NCBI RefSeq assembly: GCF_004010195.1
Contig: NC_057735.1
Span: 27,832,930-27,896,929, forward strand
Length of the DNA: 64,000 bases
DNA from: Chiloscyllium plagiosum
Lineage: Eukaryota
Reading direction: 5' to 3'
Shown: positions 31,060 through 57,829 of the stretch, piece by piece
Layout: each line of letters opens with the position of its first letter
How positions within the stretch are numbered: the first letter of the stretch is position 1
The notes under the pieces: generated by a model
The model's database searches: none
The model's input: only the letters and a program-made list of their open reading frames with translations
Told to the model about the DNA's origin: nothing
Position numbers and translations under genes: made by a program

Positions 31060-31067
31060 TATATAAA
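31060..31067 (+). promoter_or_regulatory. TATA box of the motilin gene
   Basis: TATATAAA about 90 nt upstream of a plausible donor (GAG|GTACAG at 31156/31157) and about 1 kb upstream of coding exon 2. Confidence 0.65.
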
Positions 31068-31089
31068 GGATCTGCAAGCAAGCATTTAT

Positions 31090-31156
31090 CTTAGAAAGAG
31101 AACTGCAAAATACAGAACTCAACAAAGAAGATTCACAACAGTACAACTGCACTGAG
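31090..31156 (+). other. MLN: Putative non-coding exon 1 of MLN (start approximate)
   Basis: Lies between the TATA box and a GT donor; exon 2 has an acceptor 7 nt before the ATG, implying an upstream non-coding exon as in mammalian MLN. Confidence 0.55.
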
Positions 31157-32045
31157 GTACAGCATAGTTTTTTTTAATAAGGATTTTGTGTATTGATGAA
31201 TGCATTTTTGTGGTTACTGTCAACTTATTGACACACGTGTGTCTCTTTTATTCACTACTTTTAAACAGTGCACCTATACATCAATGACCTACTCTGAAAG
31301 TGTTGCTTTTTGCTATTATCATTTATATTGTCATGAAGCTAGCTCTGCATATGGTGACAGACTTAAGCAGACATTCACTTCTAAGTGAATTTTAAGTGTC
31401 TTGAAAGTAGGATTGGGAATGTGTAATTTTTCTTTGGAGATCCAAGATCAGCCATTCTTTTATAAAAATAGAAACATTGATTGGTCATTCATATACTGGA
31501 AGGTGAAGAAAGGACTGTAAATACAGAGAAAAGTAAATCTTGAAACCTAAGTGCACAAGTTAATGTTTAAGGGCAGAATTGGGAACCAAATTCACTGGAA
31601 GAATGAAGTTTGATGTCTTTTTCCCAAGTCAGAAGCAATTAATTCCTTTATTTGAAAGAAAGATATGTTGATATTTGAGCTGAAAACTGACGTTAACAAA
31701 GGATATTGAATTTTTAATGAATGTTTATCGAAATCTTTAGTACAAATGAATTGTATTCCTTAACAGTGATTTTTTTTGACAAATCCTGGATCGCTTGCTT
31801 GGAGTTTAACATTTTTAACTATTCACTTCAAAATTATTTAAAATTTAGATAAAAGCAAAATTGATTTACAATGTGGTATCATTTGTAGTTTTAAATAAGT
31901 ATCATATCTCCAGCCAAATATAGTTGATATACTGTTCGTAAGTCTGTATGAATAAATGAATCGATATGTGATTAATTAATTACTGTTGTGTTGTATTTTT
32001 CATTTATTATTCTTTAAAAAAAATGTTTCTGCTTTCAGGTCAAAG

Positions 32046-32162
32046 ATGATTTCTAGGAGAGTAATGATAAATCTGATGGTGGTTTGCATTGTTGCAATGC
32101 TGGCAGAACAGACTGAGGGGTTCCTGACTTTTTTGAGCCCAAGAGATTACCAAAAAAAGATT
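32046..32162 (+). CDS. MLN: Prepromotilin exon 2: 25-aa signal peptide plus mature residues 1-14
   Basis: MISRRVMINLMVVCIVAMLAEQTEG|FLTFLSPRDYQKKI versus human MVSRKAVAALLVVHVAAMLASQTEA|FVPIFTYGELQRMQ, the same 39 codons; acceptor at 32037-38, donor GTACGT; tandem and upstream of LEMD2 as in human. Confidence 0.93.
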
Positions 32163-32401
32163 GTACGTAAAACACTTATTACACAGTTTTAATACTTGTT
32201 TGTTTGCGTTTTAAGCAGATTATGCCATTTTTACTTGCAAGTTTGTAATATGTAATTTGTGAAGAAAGAAGGATTGCATTATAATACAGATAAAATGTCC
32301 ACATGTGGTGCAGTCTTGCCCCAGGAAACTCAAATCTGATTTTGTTAGGATTAATTATCTGCTTGTGAAATGTCATTTGACATTATATTTTTGTTTCAAA
32401 G

Positions 32402-32506
32402 GAAAATTACAGAGTGGGAAAAGGTGTGCCAATGAACCTCCAAAAGAGATCTGAAGAAAATAATTTACCAGAAGTGTCCAGTATGGAAGAAATGAAAGTA
32501 ATAAAG
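32402..32506 (+). CDS. MLN: Prepromotilin exon 3
   Basis: ttgtttcaaag| ENYRVGKGVPMNLQKRSEENNLPEVSSMEEMKVIK |GTAGAT; phase 0-0; QKRSEE and the terminal IK match motilin precursors. Confidence 0.9.
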
Positions 32507-32644
32507 GTAGATAAATGGAAAATAAAGTTGGATAGTTTTTTTTGTACAAACTAGTTCTTCAATCTGATGTTTGTACTGATAAGAACCTATAGAAAGCAAA
32601 CGTGAAAATTTCAGCTTGCTTTAGGCCATATGATATCATGGCAA

Positions 32645-35470
32645 AATGGTGCAGCAAACATTCAGCCGATCAAATCTGCTCCACCATTTGATCGTGGCTG
32701 ATGTTTCTCAACCTCATTCTCCTGCTTTCTTCCCATAACCATTGACCTTCTTGCTAATCAAGAACATACCTATCTCTACCTTACATACATGCAATGGCTT
32801 GGCCTACACAGCCTTCTGCAGCAATAAATTCCACAGTTAACTATCCTCGCTGAAGAAATTCCTCCCCGTCTCAGTTCTAAAGGGTAATTCACTCTGAGGT
32901 TGTGCCCTCGGATCCTCGTCTTTCCTGTTAGTGGAAGCATTTCTCTGCATCCACAGTATTCAGGCCTCTCAGTATTCTCTAATTTTCAATCAGATCTCCC
33001 TAATCCTTCTAAACTGCATTGAGCACAGATCCAGAGTCCTCAACTGCTCCTCATGTACCAAGCCCTTAATCAGTGGGATCATTTTTGCAAACCTCCTCTG
33101 GACCCCCTCCAATGCTGCACATCTTTCCTTAGGTACAGGGCCCAAAACTGCTCAGAATATTCCAAATGTGGTCCGACCACAGCATTATACAGCCTCAGCA
33201 GTAAAACTCTACTCTTGTATTTGATCCCTATTGAAATGTATGCTAACATTGCATTTGCTTTCCTAACTCCCAAAGGAACCTCCATGTTAACTTTAAAAGA
33301 ATCCTGAACAAGGACTTCTAAGTCCCTTTGTGCTTCACATTTATGAAGCCTTTCCCTATGTAGAAAATATTCTATGTCTCAACTTTCCTATCAAAATATA
33401 TTACCTCATATTTTTCCACATTATATGCCATCTGGCACTTCTTTCCCCATTCTTCCAGCCTGTCCAAGTCCTTCTGTAGCCTTCACACTGCCTCAACACT
33501 ATCTGTCCCTCTACCTACCTTTGTGTCATCTGAGAACTTAGCAACAATGCATTCAGTTCCTTTTTCCAGACCATTAATGTACTATAGGTCTGGTCCCAAC
33601 ACTGACCCCTGCGGAATCCATAGAGTCAAAGTCATATAGCACGGAAACAGACCTTTTGGCTCAACTCATCCATGTCAATCAGGTTTCCTAAACCGAATTA
33701 GTCTCATTTGTCTGTGTTTGGCCCATATCTCTCTAACCCTTTCCTATCCATGTACCTGCCCGACTATCTTTTAAATGTTGTGCTTGTATTCGCCTGTATC
33801 ATTTCATCTCGTTCCATATATGCACTGCCCTCATGTAGAAACGTTGCTCCTCAGGTCTTTTTCAATCTTTCCCCGCTCATGTTAAATCCATGCCCTTCAC
33901 TTTTGGATTCCCCTTACTCTGCGGAAAAGATCTTGGCTCTTCACCTTATCCATACCTCTCATAATTTTATAAACCTCCATAAGGTCACCCCTCAGCCTCC
34001 TATGCTCCAGAGAAAAAAAGTCCCAGCCTATCTAGACTCTCTTTATAACTCAAACCCTCCAGTCTCAGTAACATTCTAGCAAATTGTTTGCGTACCCATT
34101 CCAGTATAATAACATTCTTCCTGTAGCAGGGCGATCAAAATCATATACAGTACTCCAAATGCGGCCTTTCCAATGTCTTGTAGAGCCATAGAATAATGTC
34201 CCAACTCCTGCAGTCAATGTGCTCTGACCGACGAAGACAAGTATACCAAACACCCTTTTTACCACCCTGTCTACCTGTGACATCACTTCTTAGGAACTTT
34301 TACTTTCCCCAGGGCCCTACTATTAAATGTGTAAATCCAGCTCTCGTTTGTCTTACCAAAATGCAACACCTCATATTTATCTAAATTAAACTTCATCTGC
34401 CACTTCTTGGCCCACTGGCCCAGTTGATCTAGATCCTGTTTTATTCTTAGATAACTTTCTTCACTGTCCACTATATCAACACTATACCACCAAAACTTAC
34501 TAAACATGCCTCACATATTCTCATCCAAATCATTTATATAAGTGATGAACAATAGTGGACCCAGCACCGATCCTTGCGGCACATCACTGGTCAAAAGCCT
34601 CCAGTTTAATATCAACCCTCCACTAACACCCTCTGACTGCAATGGTCAAGGCAATTTTGAATCCAGTTGGCTAGCTCTCCCTGGATCCCATGTCATCTAA
34701 CCTTATAATCAGTCTACCATGTGGAACCTTAGTGAAGGCCTTGCCAATGTCAATGTAGATAATGTCTACCACTCTGCTTTCATTTATCACTACTCACCAG
34801 CTCTCTGCCTTCTGCCAGTCAGCCAATCCTGTAACTATGCCAGTCAGTACCTTGCCCCTAAATCCATGAGCTCTAAGTTATTAAGCAGCATCCCATGCGC
34901 ACTTTGTCAAAGGCCTTCTGGAAATCCAGATAGGACAGTTCCTTTGGCTGTCCTTTGTCTAACTTGCTTGCTACTTCTCAAAGAATTCTCACAGATTTGT
35001 CAGGCATGACCTCCCATTCATGAAATCATGCTGACTCAGCCCTATTTTACCATGTACTTTCAAATACTCTGCAATCTCATCCTTAATAATGGACGCTAAA
35101 ATCTTACCAACGATCAAATTCAGGCTAACTAGTCTATAATTCCCTATGATCTGCCTCCTTCATCTCTTAAACAGAGTTGTTACATCAGCCATTTTCCAGT
35201 CCTTTGTGAGACTACCTGAGTCTAGAAAAGTCATGATCAATGCCTCCACAATCTCCTCAGCTATCTCCTTCAGAATTCAGGGTATAGTTCATCTGGTTGA
35301 GATGATTTATCAACCATCAGTCCTGTTAGCTTCTCCAATTCGTTTTTAGTGATGGCCACTACACTCAACTCTGCCCTAACTCTGTTGAAGTTCTGGAATG
35401 TTGCTGATGTCTTCCAATTTGAAGACTGAGGCAAAGTAGCTATTCAGTTCCTCTGCCATTTCTTTGTTCA
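32645..35470 (-). mobile_element. CR1 LINE in MLN intron 3 with a nested HER1-type LINE (about 33618-34785)
   Basis: RKANAMLAYISIGIKYKS...GPHLEYSEQFW; a second 3' tail begins at about 33618 and the outer element resumes at about 34790. Confidence 0.85.
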
Positions 35471-35833
35471 CTATTACTACCTCTCCAGCCTCTTCTGAAT
35501 CTAATCTCTTATGTAATCTATCTCTTTACCTCCCATTGATAGCTCTATACTTAGTCATCTAGTTTTCACACTCCAGAATTCCCTGCTAATTCCCTGCACC
35601 TTTCCATTTCATTTCAACACATATCTTTGACCAAATTTTTGATCACTACTTCTGACTTCTCCTTTGACTTTGTCCAATTTTGTCTGATTATACATTATGA
35701 AGTTTTTGACATTATTTTTACATTGAAAGCATTAGACAAAATAAAGTTCCTGACCACTTTTATTCACAGGAAACATTTGTATCCTATTTTGTAATACCTA
35801 CTTTATAAATTTTTGTACAGCCTTGTTTTATAT

Positions 35834-35944
35834 GGGCATTTGTGAGACAGTGGTAGTATCCCTACCTTTGAGCCAGAAGGCCTATGTTCAAGTCCCAGTG
35901 CTCCAGACGTGTGTAATAACATCCCTGAACAGGTTGATTAGAAA
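35834..35944 (+). mobile_element. Short tRNA-derived SINE abutting the MLN exon 4 acceptor
   Basis: cagtggtagtatccctacc...gttcaagtccc...taataacatccctgaacaggttgattagaaa; sister copies at about 42020, 50510, 58545 and 59080-59460. Confidence 0.65.
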
Positions 35945-35958
35945 CTTTTTTTTTACAG

Positions 35959-36067
35959 CTTTGTGTTCCTTTTGAAATTGGGATCAAGTTGAGTAGCAAA
36001 CAATTTCAGAAATATGGAGAACATCTGGGTGAGCTCCTGCAAAACATTTTGTCAGAAAACAAAAATG
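35959..36067 (+). CDS. MLN: Prepromotilin exon 4 (motilin-associated peptide core)
   Basis: T-tract-acag| LCVPFEIGIKLSSKQFQKYGEHLGELLQNILSENKN G|GTAAGA; matches the motilin/ghrelin-associated peptide motif. Confidence 0.93.
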
Positions 36068-36258
36068 GTAAGACAGATTTTACTCAGTCTTTGAAATTTA
36101 ACTTCAAAGGATACAGAGAAAAGCTATAAAACTTAAAATCTTGTAATGATCATACTGTAACATATGCTGATAATTAATCAAGAATGAAATATATCTCTGT
36201 ATAATTGTTTAATCACTCATTAGTTTAATAAATATGTTTTATTTAAGTTTAAGTTTGT

Positions 36259-36548
36259 GGGCAGCACAGTGGCACAGTGGTGAGCACTGCTGCCTCACAG
36301 CGCCAGAGACCCGGGTTCAATTCCCGCCTCAGGCGACTGTCTGTGTGGAGTTTGCACATTCTCCCCGTGTCAGCATGGGAGAATGTGCAGGTTAGGTGAA
36401 TTGGCTATGCTAAATTGCCCGTAGTGTTAGGTGAAGGGGTAAATGTAGGAGAATGGGTCTGGGTGGGTTACGCTTCGGAGGGTCGGTGTGAACTTGTTGG
36501 GCCGAAGGGCCTGTTTCCACATTGTAAGTAATCTAATCTAATCTAATC
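36259..36548 (+). mobile_element. HE1 SINE (internally deleted)
   Basis: tRNA head; (TAATC)n tail. Confidence 0.9.
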
Positions 36549-37009
36549 TTAAACAGCTACTGAGTAGGGAATGGCATAGTAAAAATGTCACTGGACTAGT
36601 TACCCAGAGGGCAGGTTAATACTTTGGAAAACAAAAAATAATTGCTCCTGGAATTTTTCTTTTTGTTTCATATTTTCAACATCCACTGTTCTTTGTTTTA
36701 TAATAATCTATGGATACTGGTTTTAATGGCGAAATTTAAATTCAATTAGTAAAATCTGTAATTAAAAGTTAGTCTGAAAACCATGTAATTCATTTTAGGG
36801 AAGGACATCTTCCATCCATACAGAGTCTGGCCTATGTGTCATTCCAGAACCACTGCAATGCAGTTGACGCTAAACTAATTAATATAGTAAGCCACTCTAT
36901 TGAAGAGGAATTGTGATAAGCAACAAATAGTAGGCCTGTCCATGATGCTCATATCCCTCAGAAAATTTAATTAAAAATAAAGTTATTGCTAATCAGATCT
37001 AGATATAAA

Positions 37010-37578
37010 TTGGAGCTTAGTTGAACCTTTTCTGGTCAGATCACATTTGGAATATTGTGCCCAGTTTTGGGCTCCATATCTCAGGAAGGATGTACAGACC
37101 CTGGAGTGTGAGTAAAGGAGGTTCATGAGAATGGGCCCAGGAATGAAAAGCTTAACATATGAGGAATGTTTGAGGACTTTGGGTTTATACTCAGTGGAGC
37201 TTAGAAGGATGAGGGGGATCTAATTGAAACATACAGAATACTGAATAGCCCGGAGAGAGCAGATGTTGTTTCCATTGGTAGGAGAGATTAGGATCTGAGG
37301 GCATAGCTTTAGAATAAAGGAAAGACCTTTTAGAACAGAGATAAGGAGAAACTTCTTCATCCAGAGAGTGGTAAATCCATGGAATTCATTGCCATAGAAG
37401 GCTGTGGAGGGCAGGTCATTCAGTATACTTAAGACTGAGATAGATATACTCTTGAATATCAAGGGTTACGGGGAGAAAGTAGGAGAATGGGGTTGAGAAA
37501 TACATCAACCATGATTGAATGGAGGAGCAGACTCGATGGGCTGAATGGCCTAATTTCTGCTCCTATGTCTTATGGTCT
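37010..37578 (+). mobile_element. CR1 LINE 3' fragment in MLN intron 4
   Basis: Reverse-complement homolog of 32660-33200; cctatgtcttatggtc tail. Confidence 0.85.
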
Positions 37579-37755
37579 TTAAATACTGTACAAGTTTTGA
37601 ATGGTTATATAATTCTTGATGGCATTTTTTCAATGTAAAAGCTATCTTGAAATCTACATTATTTTTACACTTAGATATTGTGTGAGAATTACATGATATT
37701 CAAAGATATGTAGACACTGACAATAATTTTGTTTCTTTTCCTTTTTTCAAAACAG

Positions 37756-37763
37756 GTCAATGA
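37756..37763 (+). CDS. MLN: Prepromotilin exon 5 coding end (G-Q-stop); total protein 112 aa
   Basis: Long pyrimidine tract then aacag|GT CAA TGA, phase-1 compatible; AATAAA about 100 nt downstream. Confidence 0.78.
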
Positions 37764-37859
37764 CTTCAGCAAATCAGGCTGATTAAATATCGATGTATAG
37801 TTCACAAGTGACAGAGAACAGTTGTAGGAAACTTTTATGTATAGGAACATTTAATAATT

Positions 37860-37865
37860 AATAAA
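37860..37865 (+). terminator. Polyadenylation signal of MLN
   Basis: AATAAA 97 nt after the stop, followed by a T/GT-rich stretch (ttttgtgtgg). Confidence 0.6.
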
Positions 37866-42189: not shown

Positions 42190-42251
42190 TACGCATGCTC
42201 GGGGGGCTGGAGTTGCGCCTGCGCACTGGTGACGAAGCTCAAAATGGCGAC
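42190..42251 (+). promoter_or_regulatory. LEMD2 proximal promoter: NRF1 motif and a YY1-type motif overlapping the start codon
   Basis: TGCGCCTGCGCA at 42214-42225; CAAAATGGCG across the ATG at 42244; CpG-rich. Confidence 0.6.
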
Positions 42252-43672
42252 GACAATGAGCGACAGAGATTTGCGAAGCAAGCTGAAGGCCTTGGGCTTC
42301 GCGGCCGGCCCAATCACCGACAGCACCAGGTCCGTGTACCTGAAAAAGTTACAACAACTGCAATCCGAAAAGAATCAACAGGAAAAGAACAGCCGGGCGC
42401 CGCGGGTTCGCCAGAGCCTCCGGCAACGGGAGGTTGAGTTCCCGGCCCCCGCCCCAGCCCCAGAGCAGCCAAGGAGGAAGCCAGCCGCTGTCTCCAACGT
42501 GAGGGCCGAGTCCAGCCGCCAGCAGGCCGACGCTGTGTCTGACTCTACCACCATACATTATTCAGGGACATCGGCTGCATACCTTACAAATAGACTCCAT
42601 TCAGGGGATGACGAAGACGCGGAGGAATCTGACAGTCTGAGCTCGCATCGATACACGGGGACTTCCAGCAGCTTGCATTCGGATTCGTTTACCAGGAAAC
42701 CAGTCAACTCATATTCAGATCGCTATACAGGCGCATCTGGCAGCCTGACTTTAGATCCATATACCACGAAATCTGTTAGCTCATATTCAGATCGCTATAC
42801 AGGGGCATCTGGCAGCCTGACTTTAGATCCATATACCACGAAATCTGTTAGCTCATATTCAGATCGTTATACAGGGGCATCTGGCAGCCTGACTTCAGAT
42901 CCATATACCAGAAAACCTGTCAGTTCATATTCTGAGCGATATACAGGAATATCTGGCAGCCTGACTTCAGATCCGTATACCAGAAAACCTGTCAGTTCAT
43001 ATTCTGAGCGATATACAGGGGTATCTGGAAGCCTGGGTTCAGATCCGTATGCAGGGACATCGGGCGGCCTGACTTCAGAATCACACAGCAGGATAACTGA
43101 CCGACTGTATTCAGATCGCTACACTGGGGAGAGTCTGAATTCAGATCCATATACAAAGAAATCTGACAGTTCATATTCGGATCCATACACTAGGAAATCT
43201 GACAGCCTGTATCCAGATACATATACGGAAAAATCTGACATCCTGAGTTCGGATCAATATGCAAGGAAATATCAGAGTCTAAAATCCAAGCCATACACAA
43301 GGAAACCTGATAGCGTGTATTCAGATCAACATGCAGGGAAATCTGAGAGCCTAAGTTCAGATCTACATACAGGCAGATTTAGCAGCTTGTATTCTGATCA
43401 ATTTTCAAGAAATTTGGGCAGCCTCCATTCTGATAGTCGTTACAGAGGAAAGTCTGACAGTTTGTTGAAAAGTGAACGCTACATAAGAGGAACTGCTGCT
43501 GGGCTGCCTAAGAAGGGGGTGCAAAAACCCAAGAATCGTCTCGACAAATTTGAGTTTTACTTATCATGGTTTCTTTATGTTACTACAATTGTCCTGTGTC
43601 TCATTCTGTTGGGGTTAATCTGCGTCAAAACCTTACAGTTGCTTGAAGAATCTGAAGACGTAGGTGAAAATA
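42244..43672 (+). CDS. LEMD2: LEM domain-containing protein 2, exon 1 (LEM domain, repeat-expanded low-complexity region, TM1)
   Basis: MSDRDLRSKLKALGFAAGPITDSTRSVYLKKLQQL is a LEM motif; hydrophobic YLSWFLYVTTIVLCLILLGLICVK; donor A|GTAAGT, phase 1. Confidence 0.93.
42637..43490 (+). repeat. Coding tandem repeat: 36-nt/12-aa unit with a 72-nt higher-order core
   Basis: Near-identical 72-nt units start at 42709, 42781, 42853, 42925 and 42997; degenerate 12-aa units xxSD[PR]YT[GR]KSxS flank them. Confidence 0.9.
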
Positions 43673-44965
43673 GTAAGTACATGTATATAGATTGGTTTTA
43701 GAAGTAACTCATCTTTGTTTACAACTTTTGGTTGGAGCACAAAATAAAAATATCATGAGAAATAAAATTGCTGTACAGCAAGGGATGATTTGACTCAGTT
43801 GAGGTGTAAACATAAGTAGAAATGTGAGAATTTAGTGGCTTCAGGAATTGATAAAATATAGAAAATTGAATCCCCAGAAATTTCAACTCTTTCTCTAATC
43901 CTGCCATATGCCACAATGACTTTACAACTAATTAGGTATTCCCTAATCCCTCTCCTAAAAACTGAATGATAAAAGGGGATAAAATATTCAGTAAAATCAT
44001 TTTCAACCCCCCCCCACCCCCTTATGCAATTAAAACTAGTTAGGAGACCACACAGACCTTGCGTTGTCCATTAATATGCCACTCAAAATAGAGATCAATA
44101 GATTTTTGGGTGTTGATGGACTGAGGATAGTGCAGGTAGGTGGCGATCAGCTGTGACCTTCGGGCTGAAAGGGCTGAATTACTTCCTAGACCTTATGTTA
44201 TCTTAGCAATTATGCAATCTCTGCCTCAGTCTGCTCCTTCATTAAGGCATGTTGAGAGATAGTGTAAACCACTAGTCTGCAATGTATTCCAGAAGCACTC
44301 AGCTCTCTCTCAGTAGAAGAACTGACATATATCCAGTTTGTTTCACCCTTGGATCATTTCGCCTTTCTCCTGCTCTGGTCCAATATGTTTAACTGAAGTA
44401 TATCAATAGGGATGCTATCCAGGCTGATAATTATTTTATATATCGGTGAGCCTACCCTGCTGAAAACTAATTGGATCAAATCCATTAAGAGTAGCTGAGG
44501 TCTTTTGCAGTTAGGCATCATTTTTGTAGTTCTTCTCCAAGACTACTGTATCATTCACCAAAATTGGTAACATAAAGGTGGATAACTGCCCAGAACCTGA
44601 TCAGTTTAATTTAAGTAAATGTGATGTGTTGCATTTTAGAAAGGCAAATCAGGGCAAACTTAAACACCATAAAGAACAGGGTCTTTTGTAATAATATGTG
44701 TAGCTGCAGTACGCAGTGCTTGACATTGCAAGCCTGACTGATGATCCTAAATTATTTATCAATGTAATTCCTTGCACAATCAGACTATCCAACAAATGTT
44801 CAATTGCAAATGTTATCCAGTTATCTAGTCGGTACTTTACTTGTTATGAACAGCCAAAAGGACATGCTATTTGGTAGGATCTGCCAGTCTTTGGCTTTGT
44901 TGGGCTACATACCTGGCATTACATCACTGAACTCTTTACAATATACTCACCTGTGTGATTTTCAG

Positions 44966-46015
44966 AGTTGGTGGTGAAGGCTTGTTTTTCAGACTGGAGG
45001 CCTGTGACCAGTGGAGTGCCACAAGGACCGATGATGGGTCCTCTACTTTTTGTCATTTACATAAATGATTTGGGTGCGAGTTTAAGAGGTACAGTCAGTA
45101 AGTTTGCAGATGACATCAATGTTAGAGGTATAGTCGACAGAGAAGAAGATTACCTTAGATTAAAACAGGATCTTGATCAGATGGGCCAATGGGTGGAGAA
45201 GTGGCAGATCGAGTTTAATTCCGATAAATGCGAGGTGCTGGAATTTGGGAAAGCAAATCTTAGCAGGACTTATACACTTAATGGTAAGGTCCTGGGGAGT
45301 GTTGCTGAACAAAGAGACCTTGGAGTGCAGGTTCATAGCTCCTTGAAAGTGGAGTCGCAGGTAGATAGGATAATGAAGAAGGCGTTTGGTATGCTTTCCT
45401 TTATTGGTCAGAGTATTGAATACAGGAGTTGGGAGGTCATGTTGCAGCTGTACAGGACATTTGTTAGGCCACTGTTGGAATATTGCATGCAATTCTGGTC
45501 TCCTTCCTATTGGAAAGATGTTATGAAACCTGAAAGAGTTCAGAAAAGATTTACAAGGATGTTGCCAGGGTTGGAGGATTTGAGCTATGGGAAGAGACTG
45601 AACAGGCTGGGGCTGTTTTCCCTGGAGTGTCTGAGGCTGAGGGGTGACCTTATAGAGGTTTATAAAATCATGAGGGGCATGAATAGGATAAATAGACAAA
45701 GTCTTTTCCCTGGGGTGGGAGAATCCAGGACTAGAGAGTATAGGTTTAGGGTGAGAGGGGAAAGATATAAAAGAGACCTACGGGGCAACTTTTTCACTCA
45801 GAGGGTGGTACTTGTATGGAATGAGCTGCCAGAGGAAGTGGTGAAGACTAGTACAATTGCAACATTTAAAAAGTATCCAGATGGGTATATGAATAGGAAG
45901 GGTTGAAGGGATATAGGCTGGGTGCTGGCAGGTGGGACTAGTTTGGGTTTGGATATCTGATCAGTATGGTCAAGTTGGACTGAAGGGTCTGTGTCCTTGC
46001 TGTAAATCTCTATGT
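44966..46015 (+). mobile_element. Young 5'-truncated HER1/CR1 LINE with an open 312-aa RT C-terminus
   Basis: VTSGVPQG...LFVIYINDL...SKFADD uninterrupted, followed by the 3' tail. Confidence 0.93.
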
Positions 46016-46029
46016 TTCTAGTGGCTGAC

Positions 46030-47110
46030 ACCCCTTTTGCTGCTACTGCATAGTAAGTGTTCAGCTTTTGAGGTACCTTAACTTTGGGTAGATTGGACAC
46101 TTTTCAGGACCAGGATGTTCCAATGGTTTGCATGATATATAGTGAGAAATAATCTGATTTTGGTAGCTACTATCTTGCAGGATGGCTCTGATGTGCTTTA
46201 CTTCAATGTCAAGTTTGCAAGGCAGACAAATAGTTCAGGCATATTTACCAGGTTTTGGATAAGACCAGTCTTGTAGCAGATTGAACTGCACGTATTCCAA
46301 AGTATATACGGACCAGTGAGGATAGGTTTTGGTCAACAGACGTAGAAGACACCGTGGCTGCTGAATAAATAGTATGTTGAGGAAAGGGAGTCCATTGCAC
46401 TGTTTCCTTTCAAGTGTGAATTTCAGAGCAGGATGGAGCCCCTTAAGATACGTAAGGAAATTCTTATATGCAGCTGCAGATTCAAATATAACAAACACAT
46501 CGACATATTCAAAGTATGCAAAGACTAGGGGTCCTTCGAAGACAAGATTCCCTCGGAATCCAACAAAAATATTTGCACGTACTATTTGGTGTACATGCTG
46601 TCTGTACAAGTTGTATAGTTCTTAAGTGCAATTAATACTGATTCACACAATAATGGTGAACCAGGATCGCTATAATATAGTATTGCAGTGTAGATGTCTA
46701 TAGTTGCTTCAAGTGTTACATGATGAATAGACTAGCAATGTCAAATGAGCACATGGACACTGCATTATCAGTCTGCAAGTCCTATCTGGTCTTCACAAAT
46801 GTCAAGAACTCCTTCACTATGCAAGTGGAGAACATGCTCAATATTGGTTGAAGCAATTTATTAACTGCATAGCCCAATTAATGTTGTGCAGAACTAGTTG
46901 TAGGTAAGATAAAGTAAAGAGGCATCAATATTGTGTGTCCGTGCACACAAAGGAGCAATTAGCCTTGAAGAATTACCCTATTGTATGTTGCCTGGCAGGT
47001 TCTTGCTCTTACATAAGTACAACAGTTTTTCTTTTAGCTTGCTTTTGAGTCAGGCTGTCCCTTCATGCTGAGCAGAAGATCCAGTGGGCATATTTGGACT
47101 TGTCATAAAA
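46030..47110 (-). mobile_element. Degenerate Penelope-like reverse transcriptase fragment
   Basis: ANIFVGF...YFEYVDVFVIF...FLTYLKGLHPALKFTLE...LPFLNIL matches PLE RT motifs. Confidence 0.7.
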
Positions 47111-47124
47111 AATGGTGTGCATTT

Positions 47125-48200
47125 TGTTAAAAATCACACTACTCCCAAGCTATAGTCCAACAGGTTTCTTTGGAAGCACAAGCTTTCAGAGCGCTGCTCC
47201 TTCGTCATGTAGCTAGTGGGGCTCGATTATAGGACACAATTTATAGTAAAAGATCAAAGTGTCATTCAACTGATGCGATGCATTGAATAAACTTAGATTG
47301 CTGTTAAGTCTTTAATTACTTAGAACGGGGAAGCAGTTTTCGATTAATTCTTATGTAAATTCCAGGACTTATTTCAAGTAACAGTCCCAAGATAACTTAA
47401 TATTTTATATTAGAAAAGTGAGATCTCAGCTCGCAAGGTGCATTAAAGGTGTGAGGTGAGAGTCTGTCTGTATCGCAACCTTGAGACAGGCTGCTTCTAT
47501 TTCCAAAGTGGGAATTTATAAAATTAGATTACTTACAATGTGGAAACAGGCCCTTTGGCCCAACAAGTCCACACCAACCCGCCGAAGCGTAACCCACCCA
47601 GACCCATTCTCCTACATTTACCCCTTCACCTAACACTGCGGGTAATTCAGCATGGCCAATTCACCTAACCTGCACATTTTTGGACTGTGGGAGGAAACCG
47701 GAGCACCCGGAGGAAACCTACGCAGACACGGGGAGAATGTGCAAACTCGATACAGAGAGTCGCTTGAGGCGGGAATTGAACCCGGGTCTCTGGCGCTGTG
47801 AGGCCGTAGTGCTAACCACTGTGCCACCCACAAAATGTAACATGGACTGACTGCCTACAGATTCTGTGCATTTTGAGCAAAATCGAATGTATCTGCAAAT
47901 GAAAATTCATCTCATAGACTGATGTGTGTATGTGTGTGTGTTGTGTGGGAGAGATTATGCATTGTGCTTGCTTGGTAAAGTGTGTTAGAGTGTGACGGAG
48001 TATATGCCTCTGAGAGGTTGTGCACATGTGTGTGTCTGAGAGACAGCATGCGATTGAGAGAGGGTCTGTGTGGGTGTGATTGTGTGTATAGTGTAGTGGG
48101 GTCACCTGTAGTGTGAGATGAGCCCAAGATCCTGATTGTGGCCATCCTCATGGGTACCAAACTTGACTATTAGCCTCTGCTCAGCAACATTATATTGTTG
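47125..48200 (-). mobile_element. Penelope family B 3' region interrupted by an HE1 SINE
   Basis: Reverse-complement homolog of 17650-18440, including the TG-rich tract and terminal repeat. Confidence 0.65.
47524..47829 (-). mobile_element. HE1 SINE
   Basis: Full-length reverse complement of the HE1 consensus. Confidence 0.9.
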
Positions 48201-48598
48201 TATTTTGTTGACATAGATGACTTGTTAAGGATGACTATCCTGGTCTCTTTGTTGGGGTTTACTGATTGTATGTCCATATTTGTCCTGAGGTCTTGCAATG
48301 CTATCAAACTCTCACAATGAATGTGAAAATTGATTTATTATTTGGAAACTTGCAATATGCGTGGGTCGATCAGCTTGGCATGCATTCAAAGATTTGCTGT
48401 CTTGAATGGAAACTGGTCTGTGGTGGGCTAGCTGGAAGTAGAGAAGTTCAAATTCAGCAAACATCTCTGCCTATCGTTTTGGGATGAACTCACACCAAAG
48501 CAGAAAATTAAAGAACTGCAGACATTGGAAATCAGAAATACAAACAGAAATTGCAAGAAAAACTCTGCAGGTACCATCTGTGGAGAGAAAGCATGGTT

Positions 48599-48628
48599 AA
48601 TGTTTCAGGTCTAGTGACCCTTCTTCAG
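48599..48628 (-). ncRNA. Minimal hammerhead ribozyme core (family C)
   Basis: Minus strand ggtt-CTGAAGA-AGGGTC-ACTA-GACCT-GAAACATT-aacc: 4-bp stem I; stem III mutated relative to the ACGT of the sister copy near 51005. Confidence 0.6.
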
Positions 48629-48884
48629 AACCTTCTGACACCTCAGGCGAAATCAGGTACAAGGGCAAACACATCACTTTCAGATAATGCGTGGTCAGAA
48701 AGATTTATCATATGTTTGGAGAGAGAGTTAATTAGGTTGCCAAGCCATATCTGTTTAAGTGAGTTAATCGTGCAATTGTGCTTTACATAGGTAGTGTTTA
48801 TGGTGTGGTTATCTATTGAAACAATACAGCAGCATAGATTGATCAAATGTTTAATTAATGTCTCCTATCTAAATGTCTAATGTC

Positions 48885-49068
48885 CTTTTAGGGGAAGAAG
48901 TGTGCCATCCTTATCTTGTGTAGCTACATGTGACTGTAGACCCATAGTAAAATGGCTGACTCTGAATTGCTGTCTGAAGTGGCGTACCAAGCCATTAAGT
49001 TCAAGAGCAATTAGCGCTGAGCAATAAGTGCTTGTCCAGCCAATGACAGCCACACCCCATGGATGAAC
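48885..49068 (+). mobile_element. DeuSINE/SacSINE1-like fragment
   Basis: gccatccttatc...ctacatgtgact..agaccc...gcaataagtgct; sister copies at about 36790-36960 and 58630-58950. Confidence 0.5.
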
Positions 49069-49894
49069 TTTTTAATAAGAGGTTAAAAAAAATCTATGTA
49101 TTTAAAACTAAGTGCAGCATAGAACATGGTGTGAACTAGTAACCCTGTTACCAGTCTGGTCAAAAATGTGAACAACAGGTGAAGCTAACTGCTTCACATT
49201 GCTGCAGTGCAGTAGAAACACGAGTGGTGTGCTCACTTAACAGGATGCTGTCATCAAATGTAAAGATATGAGTGGTTTTGGCACATTGTGGTATATGCAT
49301 TTCAGCACTGATATTATGCCAGATGTGTAGGCCATACATGCTATTACTGGTTGATCATATCAGACGGCAAGTCACTTTGGCTGTACACAACAAGCAAGGC
49401 ACTGACCATACTGACCAATTTGCACATGTAAAAATTGCAACATTAAATGTGATTCTGCAATTGGACAATGTTGGCTGCATTACCCAATACAGCATAAGTG
49501 CTGACTACTCCCTTCTAAAGACCTGCACCAATCTTATGGAAACTGGTTCTTACAATTTTTTTTTAATCATTGCATTTGAATGTGTTTTATACCATACTTC
49601 TGTGGCCACCATATCACATAATGAAGCTCAAACTCCGATATCCTACCCCACAAGTAAGGACAGTACCATTTTGCCACTTGACTGCAATCTTACTGCTTTA
49701 ATATGTATTTGTAATTAATCTGTGCACATTATGAAATATCTAAGGGACAAATGGGACTTGGGTCCAGACCTCTAGTCAAGTGATAGGGACAGTACTTCTC
49801 AACAGCTCTCACTCACTATATGGATTCAGTTGAAACACCATTTGTAGCATTAGCTTGGCATATCAGATAGTTGTATTTAATTATCTCGTGATTC

Positions 49895-49946
49895 TATATA
49901 ATATATATAATATATATAATATAATATATAATATATATAATATAAT
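49895..49946. repeat. AT microsatellite
   Basis: Pure A/T tract of TATATAA-type units, 22 nt upstream of LEMD2 exon 2. Confidence 0.9.
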
Positions 49947-49968
49947 CTATGGTTTTCTTTCGTTTTAG

Positions 49969-50009
49969 TTAAGATGCTGCCAGTGGATTGCAATGGGAAA
50001 ACTGACGCA
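49969..50009 (+). CDS. LEMD2: LEMD2 exon 2
   Basis: 41 nt, (I)KMLPVDCNGKTDA versus human MKLLPVDCERKTDE; tttag| and |GTGAGT. Confidence 0.92.
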
Positions 50010-51445
50010 GTGAGTAACTGTTTTCTTCCCAGTTATAGTTAACACTTAGATGGTAAATTTTAAAGTGGAGAATGTTATAAAAGTCACAGAAATCTAAGTT
50101 TGATATTCACTCCACTCCTTCACAATATTAGGAGGCATTGGCAATATTGAGAAGGTATAGTGGAAGTGCATAGATCTTTTTATGTAATCGAGCAAAGTTC
50201 TGTCTCCAGTCAACTCCTATATGTTTCACTGTATCAAAATAAATCTTATTTTTGGATTTATAAATGCCAATTTTTTTCCTGGATCTAATTGTTGCCAAAA
50301 ATAACTATTAAAAAGTGCCTGTAGGTGATAAATCAGTTGTAGAATTTCTCAACAGTGATCCTTGTGGAAATCTGTTTTCTTCCTTAGCACAGGAATAGTT
50401 TCTTTTTCAGAAAGAGCAGTTAGCTTATTAGCAAAACTAATGTTGTATATAGAGTGTTTTCTGAACAGTCGTAGAACTAGTATATATGTCAAATAAGATT
50501 ATTAATCAGTCTGTTTGGAAATGTTATGGCCACCTCTGGAACAGGTGGGCCTGAACCCAAACCTCCACCTGGAGGAAGGGGAACTAACAGTTTGCCATGA
50601 GACTCTTTATAGACAGATTCTACTTTGACAACTTTGTTCTATTGTTGTTCAAATTATCTTGTAGTAAATGAAGTCTATTAGACAGTTTAAAGCTAAAAAC
50701 CTAAAATCATGAAAGCGTTTGAATGAATAAGCAATGTATTTTAAGTGATTATGACACCCTATCAGTGGTTGGCAGTTGCAGTATTATGTGGCAAATTCAG
50801 ATCATCATTAATCTAAATTGAAGGCTTAGTTATCCATTTCACAGATCCACTAGACCCACAATGCTCTACTGCTGACCAGATATCAATGATATGTGTATGT
50901 TGACTTGTACTGTGTACCTACATGATCAAAAATGTGAAGCCAAAACTGAAATTGCTGGAAAAACTCAGCAGGTCTGGCAGTATCTGCAGAGAGAAATCAG
51001 AGTTAACGTTTTGAGTCGGGTGACTCTCCCTCAGAATCTTCTCTTCTGTTTTGGTTTCTGATTTACAGCATCCGCAGTTCATTCAGTTTTTAGGTTGTCC
51101 AAAGATCTGAACATCCACACACAGAGGTTTTCCAATGCATTAATAACACACTAGAGGTCACTGTTCTGTACTCAATGTGTAGCGCATAATACCAGATGGA
51201 ATAACTGGTAAAACGGTATTTGCAGTATAAAATGAAACTGAGGCATTATGCATTACTTTATTTGTTTCTGAAAAAAGATAGGCTAGATTAAGTAATTTGT
51301 GACTGTAATCACACCAATATATGCTTGATAAAATACAAAATATTTCATTAATTAGTTTAGCATTTCTTAGTTTTGGATTTATGTTACATTTCAAGCGTTA
51401 TTTTTATTAATACTTTAATTTCATTTATCAACTTTTTTTTTCTAG

Positions 51446-51521
51446 TATTGCCAAGCTGAAGAACGCAAAATCATAATGCTCATGTTGTCTGAAATGTATG
51501 AGTATTTGGCAGAAATAGCTG
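51446..51521 (+). CDS. LEMD2: LEMD2 exon 3
   Basis: 76 nt, YCQAEERKIIMLMLSEMYEYLAEIAG versus human [26 protein letters not shown]; canonical splice sites. Confidence 0.92.
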
Positions 51522-53277
51522 GTGAGTTGAAGGATAATCACAAAGGGGAACGTATTCTTGCTGTAAATTACTAGCTACAAAAAATGTAAACAGCTAAGGA
51601 AAATACGAAAGATCCACAAAATTCAGTTTAACACGTACCATAATACTGCTTTTCAATGGGAGAATAAATTCTTTAATGTAATCAAAATTGTGGATAATGT
51701 ATTGAACATTTTAAAGATTGCATTCAGTAGATTTTTGCCAAGTAAAGATTCTGCAAAAAGGCAGCAAAGGGGAGATGAGGTAGAAGATCAGCTATGATCT
51801 TTTCAATAACTAAGCAAACTTGAGGGATTGCATAATGTAACCTAGCTCATAATCTTTGCATTCAAATCAGCTTAATTCAAGAGGATATTTAAAGCATTCC
51901 TAATGAAGGTAAAGTGTATAAATAATTCTGGCATAATCAATGTTTTTATGTAAAATTCTTCATTTGATTCAATCACCCTGCATCTTTGTACTTAACCCTC
52001 TTAAACTCAGTCTGGTTTTAGTTTTTCAGCAATTTCAAATGCTATACTTATATCACGATAACCAAGAAATGTAAGCAGGCAGTGTATCACTGCGTTGCCT
52101 CTTGTCAGTCACAGGTAGCTTGAGAGTCAGAGCGATGACTTATGTTTCTCTATAGGAATAGAAGCAGCTGTTCAATTATTTTCCACACCATTGCATGGAT
52201 TGTAAAATCTCTAGGATTACATGCATTCATGAGAAATTGAGGTTATTCTTCAGTCGCTACTCAGGAGAAGAAAAAAACAACAACAAAAATCTGTTTTTTG
52301 GTTGAACCGTTTTGGATATTAGTTCTGTAAGTGCTAAAGATAGTGTTAACTTCTGCTGTATTGAATGATTGGAGATGAGTGTTATTTTGATCCAAACTCC
52401 AGGAAATGGTCAAGCAAAGTTTATTTTCCAAAACGTTTTTGATTTGGGGAAGGTTCCATTAGACTGGAATACACCAAATGTGATTATTTTATTCAGAAGG
52501 GGAGGAGACAGAAAACAGTAAGTTACAGACCAGTTTGTTTTGATAGCTGCCATACGGAAAATGTTAGAAACTTTAACTAAAGACATTATAGCGAGGCACT
52601 TAGGTAAGTTCAATGTAATCCAGCAGAGTTAGTATGGTTTTGTGAAAGGTAAATCATCTTTAACCAATCTATCAGCGTCTTTGAGGAAATAACACATTCA
52701 GTGTAAGGGTGACTTGGGTATATAGTGTACTTCAATTTAAAAAAATAATTTGATAAGGTGCCACAGAAAGTAGAAGTTCGTGGTGTAGAGGGTAGCATGT
52801 TGGCATGGATAGAGGATTGGCTGGATATCAGGAAGTAGAGGGAAGGCAAAAATGGGTCATTTTCAGATTGACACATTATAATGAGTGTTGTGCCACAGAA
52901 AGTGGTGCTGGAATCTTTACTGATTCCAATTTATTTCAATGACTTGGATGAAGAGATTGAAGATATAGTTGCTACATTTGTTGATATCAAGAAGACAGGT
53001 TGAAAAGTAAGTTACAAAGAGGACATAAGGAGGCTACGAAAAGATATGCGTTTAAGTAGTGGGCAAATAGAATATAACATGGGGGAAAAATGAATGTACT
53101 TCTGCTTTGGCAGAAAGAATAAAAAGCATTTTGTCTAAATGGTGAGAGATTGCAGAACTTTGCTATGCAGAGATAGCTTAATGTCCTGGTATATGAATTG
53201 CATAAGGCGAGTGTGCATGAATATGTGAAACCTCATACAATATTATCATTTATTGTGGAGTGCGTTGAATAAAAAAG

Positions 53278-53466
53278 TTAAAAATCACACAACACCAGGT
53301 TATAGTCCAACAGGTTTAATTGGAAGCACACTAGCTTTCGGAGCGACGCTCCTTCATCAGGTGATTGAAAGCCAGTGTGCTTCCAATTAAACCTGTTGGA
53401 CTATAACCTGGTGTTGTGTGATTTTTAACTTTGTACACCCCAGTCCAACACCGGCATCTCCGAATC
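53278..53466. mobile_element. Young palindromic Penelope family B insertion nested in a CR1 LINE
   Basis: Inverted arms of about 65 nt; perfect 13-nt TSD TTGAATAAAAAAG at 53265-53277 and 53467-53479. Confidence 0.8.
53332..53360 (-). ncRNA. Minimal type I hammerhead ribozyme core (Penelope family B)
   Basis: Minus strand cac-CTGATGA-AGGAGC-GTC-GCTCC-GAAAGCTA-gtg: intact core boxes, 5-bp stem II, palindromic AGCT stem III, 3-bp stem I. Confidence 0.8.
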
Positions 53467-54209
53467 TTGAATAAAAAAGGTAGAGATGTCTATACAGATC
53501 ATTGAGAGACCACATCTAACTATTGTGTACTGTATTGGTCAACCTATTTAAGGGGGGATATAAATGTTTTGGAAGCAGTTCAGAGAAGGTTTGCTAGTCT
53601 AATACCGGGAATGGCTACATTATGTTATGAGGAAATACTGGACAGGCTATGCTTACATCTACTGGAATTTAGAAGAAAAAGACGTGACTTGATTAAGACA
53701 ATAGATCCTGAGGGGTCTTTGACGAGGTGAATGTCAAGATGATGTTTCCTCTTAATGGAAAATCAAGAACTAGGGTCACTGGTTAAAAATCAGACATGAG
53801 ATGAAATTTCTTCTCCCAGTTTCACAAATCTGTGGAACAGTCTTCCTGAGAAAGTGTTAGAAGAGGCATCCTTGAATATTTTAAAGACAGAAATGGATAG
53901 CTTCTTGTTAAGAGAGGTTATCTGGGATAGTGTGGATCTGGATTTGAGGTTATTAAATGGTAGAGAAGACCCTGGGAGCCTAGTGGCCTATTTCTGCTGT
54001 TCATACATTTACAACACAAAATGCAACTCACTTGAAAACTTGGGAGGCAGTAAACATGGGCTTTGCCTATCATGTTCTGCTTGTTAAATGTGTTGTTCAA
54101 ATAACTAATGGTACTGTTTAAATAATTTAAGTACAAATGTTTATGTAAAAGGATATGGGATAAGCTATTTGTTGGGCATTTTCCCTGGTGCTTCAAAGGA
54201 TAGGGTGAA

Positions 54210-54995
54210 TACTAAGGTCTTTTCACTGAGGGAGTCCAAAACTAGAGGGCAAAGGTCTAAGGTGAGAGGGGAATGATTTAGAAGGGATCTGAGGGGCAAT
54301 ACTTCACGTAGAGGGTGGTGCGCATATGGAATGAGCGGCCAGAGGAAGTGGTGGAGGCTGGTACAATTACAACATTTAAAAGGCCTCTGGATGGGTACAT
54401 AAATCGGAATGGTTTAGAGGGATTTAGGTCAAATGCTGGCAAATGGCACTCGATCAGTTTAGGATATCTGATCAGCGCAGGCCTGTTTCCGTGCTGGATA
54501 ACTCTATGACTCTGTGACTGAGATGAGGAAAATTTTCTTGACTCAAAGGTTAGTGAACCTGTAGAATTCTCTACCACAGATGGATGTAGAGGCAAAGGCA
54601 CTGAATACAGTAGTCCTCTGGTACCCGCAGGAGATACGTTCAAAGACCTACCGCCAAAGCCCCAAACCATGGATAGGTGCAAACCCATTCATTTAAATTG
54701 GAAATTGACCTCCCTGGCAGCTCCCTGGTCCCCGGTTCCGGAATGTTCCACGTAATTTACTGCGGGTCATGGTAAACCACGGGTAACTGAAACCGCAGAA
54801 ACTGATTCCACAGATAGGCAGTAGACTTGTATACTCAAGAAACATCTTTTCTAGAAATTTTTGGATATTAAATACATCAAGGGATATCGGGAGAAAGCGG
54901 GATTATGGCCTTGAAATAACCATGACCATTTGAATGGCAGAGCAGGCTTGAAGGGACTAATGACCTTTTTCTGCTTCTTGTCTCTATGATTCTTC
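54210..54995 (+). mobile_element. Adjacent HER1 and CR1 3' fragments, the latter split by a MITE
   Basis: VRIWNERPEEVVEAGTITTFKR; second tail at about 54990. Confidence 0.75.
54608..54829. mobile_element. Tigger/Tc1-mariner-type MITE
   Basis: TA|CAGTAGTCCTCTGGTACCCGCAGG ... GACTTG|TA; degenerate TIRs; TA duplication inside CR1 sequence. Confidence 0.65.
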
Positions 54996-55519
54996 ATCAT
55001 TAATTTTAGGAAGTATTGAAGAATTATCTAAAATCACGTGCTTCTGGATGATAACCAGAAAATAATGTATATAACTGAATCTCTGATGTGTTGTCTTCTT
55101 GCACATAAAAGTACGTTCATCTTTACATTGAAAGCCTTCATTAATTCCGGTCTTTCTGAATGGTGTTAATCTTGTCAGTTACCTGGTCACTCAAAATGTT
55201 GCAGGGTTTTTATGTGATTGTAGAGGGACCTTTGTAGTTTGCAGTAACCAAGCATAATGTTTCTATCTTGCAGTGTTCTTCATGTCAATCTACTGGCATT
55301 TACCCAATTGCATTCTCTGTAACTGCAGCAATGTCATATACTGTTAAAATATAACCTGTTACTTTCCCTTTACACTGCTTGGGTAAAAAATGTAATTCTC
55401 TATTTGCAGCTATTTTAAAATCTGTCAGCCCAACCTAATGTGCTAATAAATTGAATGCAGTTGGCTTTATTCTTTTTCATTATGTCAGTTAGAGCCTTTT
55501 GGTTTTTATCTATACGTTG

Positions 55520-56895
55520 TCATTGTCAACAGGAATACTGCCAGAAGCCTGACGTTAGCAAATGTTGTCCCCCTTGTTCAAGAAGGGGAGTAGGGACAAT
55601 CCTGGTAATTGACCCTTAGTTTGGTTGTGGGTAAAGTGTTGGAAAGGATTACAAGAGATCGGATTTATAATCCTCTGGAAAGAAATAATTTGATTAGGGA
55701 TAGTCAGCATGGTTTTGTGGAGGGTACATCGTGCCTCACAAACCTTACTGAGTTCTTTGAGAAGGTGACCAAACAGGTGGATGAAGGTAAAGCTGTTGAT
55801 GTGGTATATATAGATTTCAAAGTAAGGCTATTGCATAAAATATGCATGGAATTGAGGGTGATTTAGCGATTTGGATCAGAAATTGACTAGTTGAAAGAAG
55901 ACAGAAGGTGGTGGTTGATAGGAAATGTTCATGCTGAAGTTCATTTAGTTGTGGTATACCACAAGGATCTGTTTTGGGGCCACTACTATTTGTCATTTTT
56001 ATAATTGACCTGGATGAGGGCGTAGAAGGATGAGTTAGTAAATTTGCAGATGATACTAAAGTTGGTGGAGTTATGGACAGTGTGGAAGGATGTTGCAAGT
56101 TACAGAGGGAAATAGATAAGCTGCAGAGCTGGGCTAGGAGGTGGCAAATGGAATTTAATACGGAAAAGTGAGAGGTGATTCACTTTGGAAGGAGTAACAG
56201 GAATACAGAGTACTGGTCTAATGGTAAAATCCTTGGCAGTCTGGATGAGCATGTAAATAGATCCCTGAAAGTTACCATCCAGGCTTATAGGGTTATTAAG
56301 AAGGCATATGGTGTGTTAAGCTTTTATTGTTATAGGGATTAAGTTTCAGAGCCCTGAGGTCATGTTGCAGCTGTACAAAACTCTGGTGCGGCCGCCCTTT
56401 GTTATTGCGTAACATTCTGGCTGCCGCATTACATGAAGGATGTGGAAGCATTGGAAAGGTTGCAGAGGAGAGTTACCAGGATTTTGCCTGGTATGGAGGA
56501 AAGGTTGAGGGATTTGAGGCTGTTTTCGTCAGAAGAAGGTTGAGAGGTGACTTAACAGAGACATATAAAATGATCAGAGGATTAGATAGGGTGGACAGTG
56601 AGAGCCTTTTTCCTCTGATGGTAGTGGCTAGCACGGGTGGGCATAGCTTTAAATTGAGGTATGATAGTTATAGGACAGAGGTCAGAGGTAGTTTCTTTAA
56701 TCAGAGTAGTAGGGGTATGGAACACACTGCCTGCAACAGTAGTAGACTTACCAACTTTAAGAGCATTTAAATGTTCATTGGATAAACGTACGAATGATAA
56801 TGGAATAGTGCAGCATAGATGGGCTTCAGATTGATTTCACAGATCGGTGCAGCATCGAGGGCCGAAGGGCCTGTATTGCACTGTAATGTTCTATT
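55520..56895 (+). mobile_element. CR1/HER1 LINE
   Basis: IRDSQHGFVEGTSCLTNLTEFFEKVTKQVDEGKAVDVVYIDF. Confidence 0.9.
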
Positions 56896-56992
56896 AATGT
56901 GGAATGTTTGAATCTTGAATGTACTTAGAGATTCATTTTTAGTTACAAAGTGCATGATTGGAGTTAAACAATTTAATTTTTTTGACTTGTAG

Positions 56993-57069
56993 GTGAGTTT
57001 GAGTGTGGATCTGAATATCTGCTGAAGACCAAATGTGTTCCAGTTGCTGATGTACAGAGACATTTAGCA
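56993..57069 (+). CDS. LEMD2: LEMD2 exon 4
   Basis: 77 nt, EFECGSEYLLKTKCVPVADVQRHLA versus human [25 protein letters not shown]; |GTAAGT. Confidence 0.92.
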
Positions 57070-57829
57070 GTAAGTTATACATTTAAATGTAAAATATTTT
57101 TAATGTACATAAGATTAGTTAATGGTTATTTGTATCTTGTAAAATTAGAAGTTTTGGACTATAAAACATGCTTGTGGAAATAAAGAAAACAGGTGAAAAT
57201 CAGCTATGTAATATTGCCATAGTGTTAAAACATTCATTGAAAATTCCTTTGTTAACATTAACATGGTGTTCAGTAACTCTTGGGGAAAAAAACATGGGTC
57301 AGTGAGATTTTTAAATACTGAACCAAAGAGTTCAAAGAAAGGTGCTACAGCTGTTGTATACTAATATTGTATAACAATTGCATTGCATTTAATGAATGCA
57401 TTTAATGAAGAGAACTGACATTAAAATAATGTACTGAACTATTGCTGAGGTGTGCAATGGAACGATAATAACTCGTCTACAATAACTCCTGCACAGTGGT
57501 CGTCACTTTATCATTGGATTGGTTCCATTGGAGCTCTACCTCGGCAAGAAGCCAAAGAATATGTACTTAAAACAAATTGGTCTTATTGTTGTGTGCATTT
57601 ATTTGCAAGATCACATGTGGTTTATAGCTGGAAACATGTAACAGTGATATTTATTTTTACACAATCAAACTATATTTGTGACTCTGATATTCCTGGTACA
57701 AAGGGGTAAAAATTTAGAGTTACTGATCATAACAACATGCATACCAGGAAATGGTACACTTAATGGCAGTGATTTTTCAGTCCATTAACTGTAATAGGTA
57801 AAAACATTGTGGGCTGAGAAAGCAAAATT

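Follow-up and report, generated by a model that had tools for sequence, protein, structure and literature searches.

Whether a motilin gene can take up part of ghrelin, or simply keeps what the two hormones once had in common, is a question raised by a gene in a 64,000-nucleotide stretch of the genome of the carpet shark Chiloscyllium plagiosum (NCBI RefSeq assembly GCF_004010195.1, contig NC_057735.1, positions 27,832,930 to 27,896,929 of the forward strand; hereafter the window, numbered from its first letter). Its predicted mature peptide begins with the Phe of motilin and has the Phe-Leu-Ser-Pro of ghrelin at residues 4 to 7, and an initial annotation had described it as a motilin/ghrelin mosaic that retains the state from before the paralogs diverged. 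Judged from its sequence, the gene is an intact carpet-shark motilin, and it is probably a slowly evolving one that has kept ancestral residues rather than a mosaic. Early divergence followed by slow change leaves a lineage sharing old states with its paralog, which explains the pattern without any transfer.

Identity of the gene

The gene encodes a predicted precursor of 112 residues in four plus-strand coding exons of 117, 105, 109 and 8 nt (32046-32162, 32402-32506, 35959-36067 and 37756-37763). AG/GT splice ends bound the first three; the splice model derives from the DNA alone, the acceptor of the last coding exon being one that we read from the sequence. A motilin-type signal peptide of 25 residues, ending in MLAEQTEG (32046-32120), precedes the mature peptide, which begins FLTFLSP at 32121 and whose residues 1 to 14 (32121-32162) include Phe1, Thr3, Phe4, Leu5, Ser6, Pro7 and an internal Lys12-Lys13 followed by Ile. 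The 105-nt exon holds the remainder of that peptide and the beginning of the pro-region, and in DNA contigs of two additional samples, both belonging to a single study (records 31865-32506 and 31993-32878), exons 2 and 3 are identical, with zero differences. The 109-nt exon, exon 4 in what follows, begins LCVPFEIG at 35959 and encodes the motilin-associated peptide, the region homologous to obestatin; it carries the ghrelin-shared states Phe79, Gln91 and Gly94 and a motilin-type Lys92, and it matches Pfam Motilin_assoc, a domain common to ghrelin (PF04643, E 1.8e-13, 50.5 bits, cut-off 22). In the last coding exon and its flank (37756-37865, plus strand), the stop codon lies at 37761-37763 and AATAAA at 37860, and the C-terminus agrees with database orthologs P0001 to P0003. 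Upstream, a TATAAA scan gives a candidate TATA box (31062-31067), and the sequence suggests a candidate non-coding first exon on the same strand (together 31062-31156), with a GT donor at 31157.

We assign the gene to motilin because of its signal peptide, Phe1, its LEM-gene neighbor, its placement in the tree and its chondrichthyan orthologs. Comparisons were made in an alignment of 9 chondrichthyan sequences, 15 bony motilins and 17 bony ghrelins, the ghrelins hand-picked for taxon spread out of about 125; long isoforms were trimmed, and one passerine motilin was dropped beforehand. The signal peptide has a mean identity of 0.50 to the 15 bony motilins and 0.19 to the 17 ghrelins, Phe1 occurs in all nine chondrichthyan motilins whereas all 17 ghrelins have Gly1, and a LEM-domain gene follows downstream on the same strand (PF03020, E 7e-16), with LEMD2 and LEMD3 not told apart by a tree. 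These are among the features, LEMD2 linkage included, from which the initial annotation had recognized motilin, and they bear that recognition out. In humans, motilin lies upstream of LEMD2, and a sturgeon model (Acipenser sinensis, P0020) that fuses motilin exons to a LEM-type gene implies the same order there.

Orthologs comprise six shark sequences, named promotilin-like, motilin-like or hypothetical, and two ray sequences, one of which, that of Mobula hypostoma (P0007), carries the name "ghrelin-like," a database artefact, as is the joining of motilin exons and LEM gene in the sturgeon model. The proteins of Chiloscyllium punctatum (P0002), Hemiscyllium ocellatum (P0001) and Stegostoma (P0003), labeled promotilin-like or motilin-like, represent the same gene as that of the window. 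Exon 2 has 92-95% identity with the two hemiscylliid proteins, P0001 and P0002, and in exon 4 a stretch of 31 residues shows no difference from them, whereas in exon 3 the window precursor has two residues fewer than P0002. Among 43 library representatives the best matches are motilins, with ghrelins behind; in the ESM Atlas, ghrelin-like and promotilin clusters score nearly equally, and the families are not separated there.

States shared with ghrelin

The mature N-terminus is where the resemblance to ghrelin is most visible. Residues 4 to 7 equal those of ghrelin and Thr3 supplies a hydroxyl at the acylation position, as the initial annotation had it, but most of this is shared with fish motilins, among which Table 1 of PMC8419268 has FFSP at residues 4 to 7 in 9/9 and Ser or Thr at position 3 in 7/9, with FSP also in two newts. 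The exception is Leu5, present in 9/9 chondrichthyan motilins and 17/17 ghrelins and in 0/15 bony motilins; it is the sole shark-specific feature of the N-terminus. As far as the aligned sequences go, then, the N-terminal likeness to ghrelin is mostly not shark-specific. Thr3 and Arg8 are confined to the three hemiscylliid sequences, those of bamboo and epaulette sharks, and the other six chondrichthyans have Ser3. Over the first seven residues the window peptide matches ghrelin at four, the same as bichir and bowfin motilin, and the other six chondrichthyans match at five; a single difference, at position 5, separates bichir motilin from the common shark heptamer. Relative-rate counts for the N-terminus are level or nearly so (1:1 against bichir, 1:1 against bowfin and 2:3 against lungfish). 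At residues 3 to 9, most shark and ray motilins (P0003-P0007 and P0050) are identical to coelacanth ghrelin (P0037), closer to it than the window peptide is.

In exon 4 the likeness to ghrelin is homology and not chance. Identity to ghrelins in this exon is 0.34-0.48 for chondrichthyans versus 0.24-0.34 for bony motilins, and the window scores 0.46 against ghrelins and 0.43 against bony motilins. The 31-residue peptide of this exon matches gorilla ghrelin at 16 positions and marmoset motilin at 14, so that an earlier hand count of about 15/31 for the obestatin region of ghrelin and 13/31 for motilin-associated peptide was about right; across all 17 ghrelins the matches run from 11 to 17 of 31, and across the 15 bony motilins they also run from 11 to 17. 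Over the whole precursor, diagnostic columns carry ten motilin states and five ghrelin states, the latter being Leu5, Pro49, Phe79, Gln91 and Gly94; Pro49 is uncertain, lying where the alignment has many gaps, and the count is four without it. Set beside bony GHRL, the gene shares residues 4 to 7, the three exon-4 states and the alignment column of a basic cleavage site, and differs in lacking Gly1-Ser2, in its motilin-type signal peptide and in lying beside a LEM gene rather than SEC13 and TATDN2.

A maximum-likelihood tree, unrooted and built without an outgroup or a shark ghrelin-like sequence, separates the motilins from the 17 ghrelins with support 82. Its branches measure 0.96 from the ghrelins to the motilin node, 0.37 along the bony-motilin stem and 0.13 along the shark stem, and the mean distance to ghrelins is 2.0-2.4 for the 9 chondrichthyans and 2.6-3.4 for the 15 bony motilins. 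Relative-rate counts favor the window sequence in eight of eight comparisons for the whole precursor, and again in eight of eight for exon 4, four of eight reaching p<0.05 in each case; the comparisons are not independent. All nine chondrichthyan sequences show the pattern of ghrelin-shared states, and their excess over bony motilins, mainly in exon 4 and at Leu5, is real within this alignment. The claim that an ancestral state has been kept is well supported by these distances, which do set the shark sequences apart from other motilins in their ghrelin-like states, with the direction of change resting on counts of shared states.

Several results weigh against this reading of retention. Direction is inferred rather than shown because the tree has neither an outgroup nor a shark ghrelin-like sequence, and the support for the chondrichthyan clade is just 31. 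When exon 4 is taken by itself, the shark node sits midway, 0.62 from ghrelins and 0.61 from bony motilins, and clustering of ghrelin states in that exon reaches p<0.05 in two of the nine sequences.

The predicted peptide and its candidate receptors

Motilin is typically a peptide of about 22 residues freed at a dibasic site. This site, Lys-Lys or Arg-Lys after about residue 22, is intact in the five sequences from outside the carpet sharks (catshark, sevengill shark, sawshark and two rays), whereas among the four carpet-shark sequences it is Lys-Gly in the window and in C. punctatum, Lys-Asn in Stegostoma and deleted in Hemiscyllium. Because it is intact in those five orthologs, the change is, on this comparison, a loss confined to one lineage and does not point to membership of another family. 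In the window, Gly-Lys-Gly (32417-32425) stands where the usual site would be, and a Lys-Arg further on (32444-32449), kept in all four carpet-shark sequences, aligns with the cleavage column of ghrelin. The internal Lys-Lys at residues 12 and 13, which C. punctatum lacks, precedes an Ile; convertases generally avoid dibasic sites of this kind. Newt and coelacanth motilins have been listed as 22-mers despite an internal Arg-Arg. Of the two candidate products, we moderately favor cleavage at Lys-Arg after residue 28, which would yield a peptide with the length of human ghrelin (28 residues; PMC3863518); the alternative is a single-basic cut at Gly-Lys, which would give an amidated 19-mer. Mature motilin may therefore differ in length between carpet sharks and other sharks.

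In the mechanism that we propose, gut endocrine cells would make the precursor, signal peptidase would expose Phe1, and a convertase would cut at one or other of these two sites, to release a peptide whose hydrophobic N-terminus would engage MLNR. The genome (G000) holds candidates for both receptors. GHSR is represented by an exon 1 (C13, near 61.96 Mb) scoring 397 bits against human GHSR versus 246 against human MLNR, with Ile at the column of human I178 (position 4.60), and an MLNR-like exon 1 scores 294 bits against MLNR versus 287 against GHSR, a narrow margin, with Phe at the column of human F173. The second extracellular loop of this MLNR-like receptor (C12:8,028,398-8,031,423) is very short, shorter than that of shark GHSR and far below the 65 residues reported for human MLNR. 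The residue at 4.60 is said to open or close the cavity for octanoyl (PMC12009760, PMC10017046). Since Phe1 of motilin packs against F173 at this position in human MLNR, the corresponding pocket of GHSR could be within reach of Phe1, which may supply the hydrophobic bulk that octanoyl gives ghrelin.

A precedent comes from the coelacanth, whose synthetic motilin binds coelacanth GHSR with an IC50 of 9.55 nM and matches ghrelin in EC50 and Emax, and which activates human GHSR weakly (10.1101/2023.06.03.543543). The same preprint aligns the motilins of Chiloscyllium plagiosum, Rhincodon, Stegostoma and Scyliorhinus and suggests that Chondrichthyes may keep the dual-ligand trait; as it stands there, the coelacanth peptide and receptor have been assayed, whereas the shark peptide is known from sequence. 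The two peptides share Phe1, a hydroxyl at position 3, Phe4 and Ser6-Pro7, and differ in that the window has the ghrelin-like Leu5 where coelacanth has Phe5, and has Thr3, Arg8 and no usual Gly-Lys-Lys end. By analogy, the shark peptide could plausibly also activate shark GHSR without a fatty acid, a proposition that we regard as evenly balanced. Two points count against it. Zebrafish motilin failed to bind the GHSRs assayed in the preprint although it has FFSP, so cross-activation takes more than the shared motif; and the window has Thr3 and Arg8 where coelacanth and most sharks have Ser3 and Ser8. The MLNR assignment, for its part, hangs on the narrow score margin above.

The gene itself and the GHSR hypothesis are already in print, and what is new is a sharper prediction, comprising Leu5, two candidate lengths and both receptors located in the genome. 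In the literature covered, the figures of the preprint and Hara et al. 2018 being outside its scope, we found no assay of a shark motilin and no remark on Leu5, the equidistance of exon 4 or the lost dibasic site. Were shark motilin to activate GHSR while carrying no fatty acid, the dual ligand use seen in one coelacanth experiment would reach into the other branch of jawed vertebrates, and it would be suggested that the ancestral hormone needed no acylation. A fuller scenario, which we hold only tentatively and think doubtful as a whole, is that chondrichthyans lost bony-type ghrelin and that their motilin is a fat-free, GOAT-independent GHSR agonist, the nearest surviving equivalent of the ancestral ghrelin/motilin hormone, cut in carpet sharks to a 28-mer at the ghrelin-type site and with Phe1 in place of octanoyl. 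If Phe1 does replace octanoyl, unacylated GHSR agonists could be modeled on a naturally occurring peptide, and whether acylation came after the duplication could be tested directly.

Other explanations and the ghrelin locus

Several of the alternatives depend on where, and whether, this shark has a ghrelin gene. The genes named as flanking ghrelin, SEC13, TATDN2 and CCDC174 (PMC4797157), all lie on the minus strand of contig C18 (67,480,001-67,900,000), and the motilin gene, on C26, is thus not beside them. Six-frame hidden Markov model (HMM), motif and tblastn searches found no bony-type ghrelin exon in the 420 kb of C18 spanning the three genes, a block interrupted by N gaps, the largest about 5 kb; the same tblastn with ghrelin queries detects the motilin exon at E 5e-7. 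Searches of the whole genome by family, protein and motif did not find a shark ghrelin or ghrelin-like gene, returning the motilin exon or chance matches only, and none of 55 matched loci inspected from two of these searches (about half of the 83 matches in one) has a signal peptide. The same three methods found no ghrelin in 200 kb around TMEM187 on C20 or in 200 kb around MECP2 on C39, and a ghrelin profile search gave bony-vertebrate ghrelins only among its best 120 of 416 matches. Cartilaginous-fish ghrelin has been described as a paralog of mammalian-type ghrelin (PMC6533539, citing Hara et al. 2018). The missing bony-type gene fits this published paralogy and is not proof of loss, because the block has N gaps and the shark ghrelin-like gene was also missed, so that the searches cannot be assumed to register a diverged copy. 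That ghrelin-like peptide, GRLN-LP, belongs to the same family, is found in sharks and rays, begins GVSFHP and is acylated at Ser3 (PMC2803784); its gene was not located in this genome by the searches above.

That exon 4, perhaps with residues 3 to 7, came to motilin from a ghrelin gene by conversion or shuffling early in chondrichthyan history is the sense in which "mosaic" would be literal, and we consider it highly improbable. Exon 4 carries three ghrelin states and one motilin state and the rest of the precursor two and nine, and its branch to ghrelin (0.62) is shorter than those of the signal peptide (1.09) and exon 3 (1.38); but this is also the Pfam-conserved part of the precursor, where short branches are expected, and the clustering is borderline (Fisher p 0.077 for the window, uncorrected). 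Moreover, exon 4 retains the motilin Lys92 and sits equidistant rather than nested within ghrelins, and the ghrelin block is on a different contig from motilin. Ordinary descent with a short shark branch fits, and the label of mosaic is better dropped. We think it unlikely, too, that selection held motilin at the ghrelin core, or moved it there, as a second GHSR ligand in cartilaginous fishes lacking bony-type ghrelin. The invariance of residues 4 to 7 in 9/9 chondrichthyan motilins is what such compensation would predict, as are the empty block on C18 in a search that detects motilin and the reported paralogy of the two ghrelins; yet that invariance equally fits MLNR binding, the N gaps and the missed ghrelin-like gene bear on the emptiness of the block as noted above, and sharks' acylated ghrelin-like peptide activates rat GHSR, so that no ligand is missing.

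It would also be possible to read the peptide as a lipidated, ghrelin-like hormone with GOAT acylating Thr3. Both the hydroxyl at position 3 and Phe4 are present, bullfrog ghrelin carries its acyl group on Thr3, and ghrl and mlnl are co-expressed in one enteroendocrine cell type of zebrafish. A review, however, names Gly1, Ser3 and Phe4 as crucial for GOAT (PMC3863518), the window peptide has Phe1 instead of Gly1 in that substrate motif (Gly1, Ser/Thr3, Phe4), as do all its chondrichthyan counterparts, and synthetic coelacanth motilin is active, with no acylation step described. Lipidation of this kind is scarcely to be expected, and the doubt that the initial annotation had expressed about acylation is upheld; since Gly1 is lacking and GOAT needs it, the peptide is probably not acylated. 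A slowly evolving motilin with retained residues accordingly remains the reading that we prefer.

Further observations concern the surroundings of these genes. MECP2 (C39, near 26.59-26.66 Mb) has a CDK-type kinase exon nearby, IRAK1 was not located and none was detectable within the 200 kb read around MECP2, and TMEM187 lies on C20 near 14.25 Mb, so that the human Xq28 block appears to be broken up here. A match to MBD on C43 that was taken for MECP2 was set aside, as it looked BAZ2-like. Two single-cell RNA runs gave no spliced or exon-specific motilin signal and are uninformative on expression. The introns of the motilin gene (32600-35500, 36270-36560 and 37000-37580) carry high-copy repeats resembling long and short interspersed elements (LINE/SINE-like), with very high contig depth over 32600-35500. 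The neighboring LEMD2-like gene spans 42244-57156 on the plus strand, with further exons at about 51446-51550 and 56986-57156 that the sturgeon model P0020 matches, and its exon 1 (42244-43698, plus strand), of about 480 codons, contains an internal tandem repeat rich in Ser, Tyr and Thr with a period of about 24 residues.

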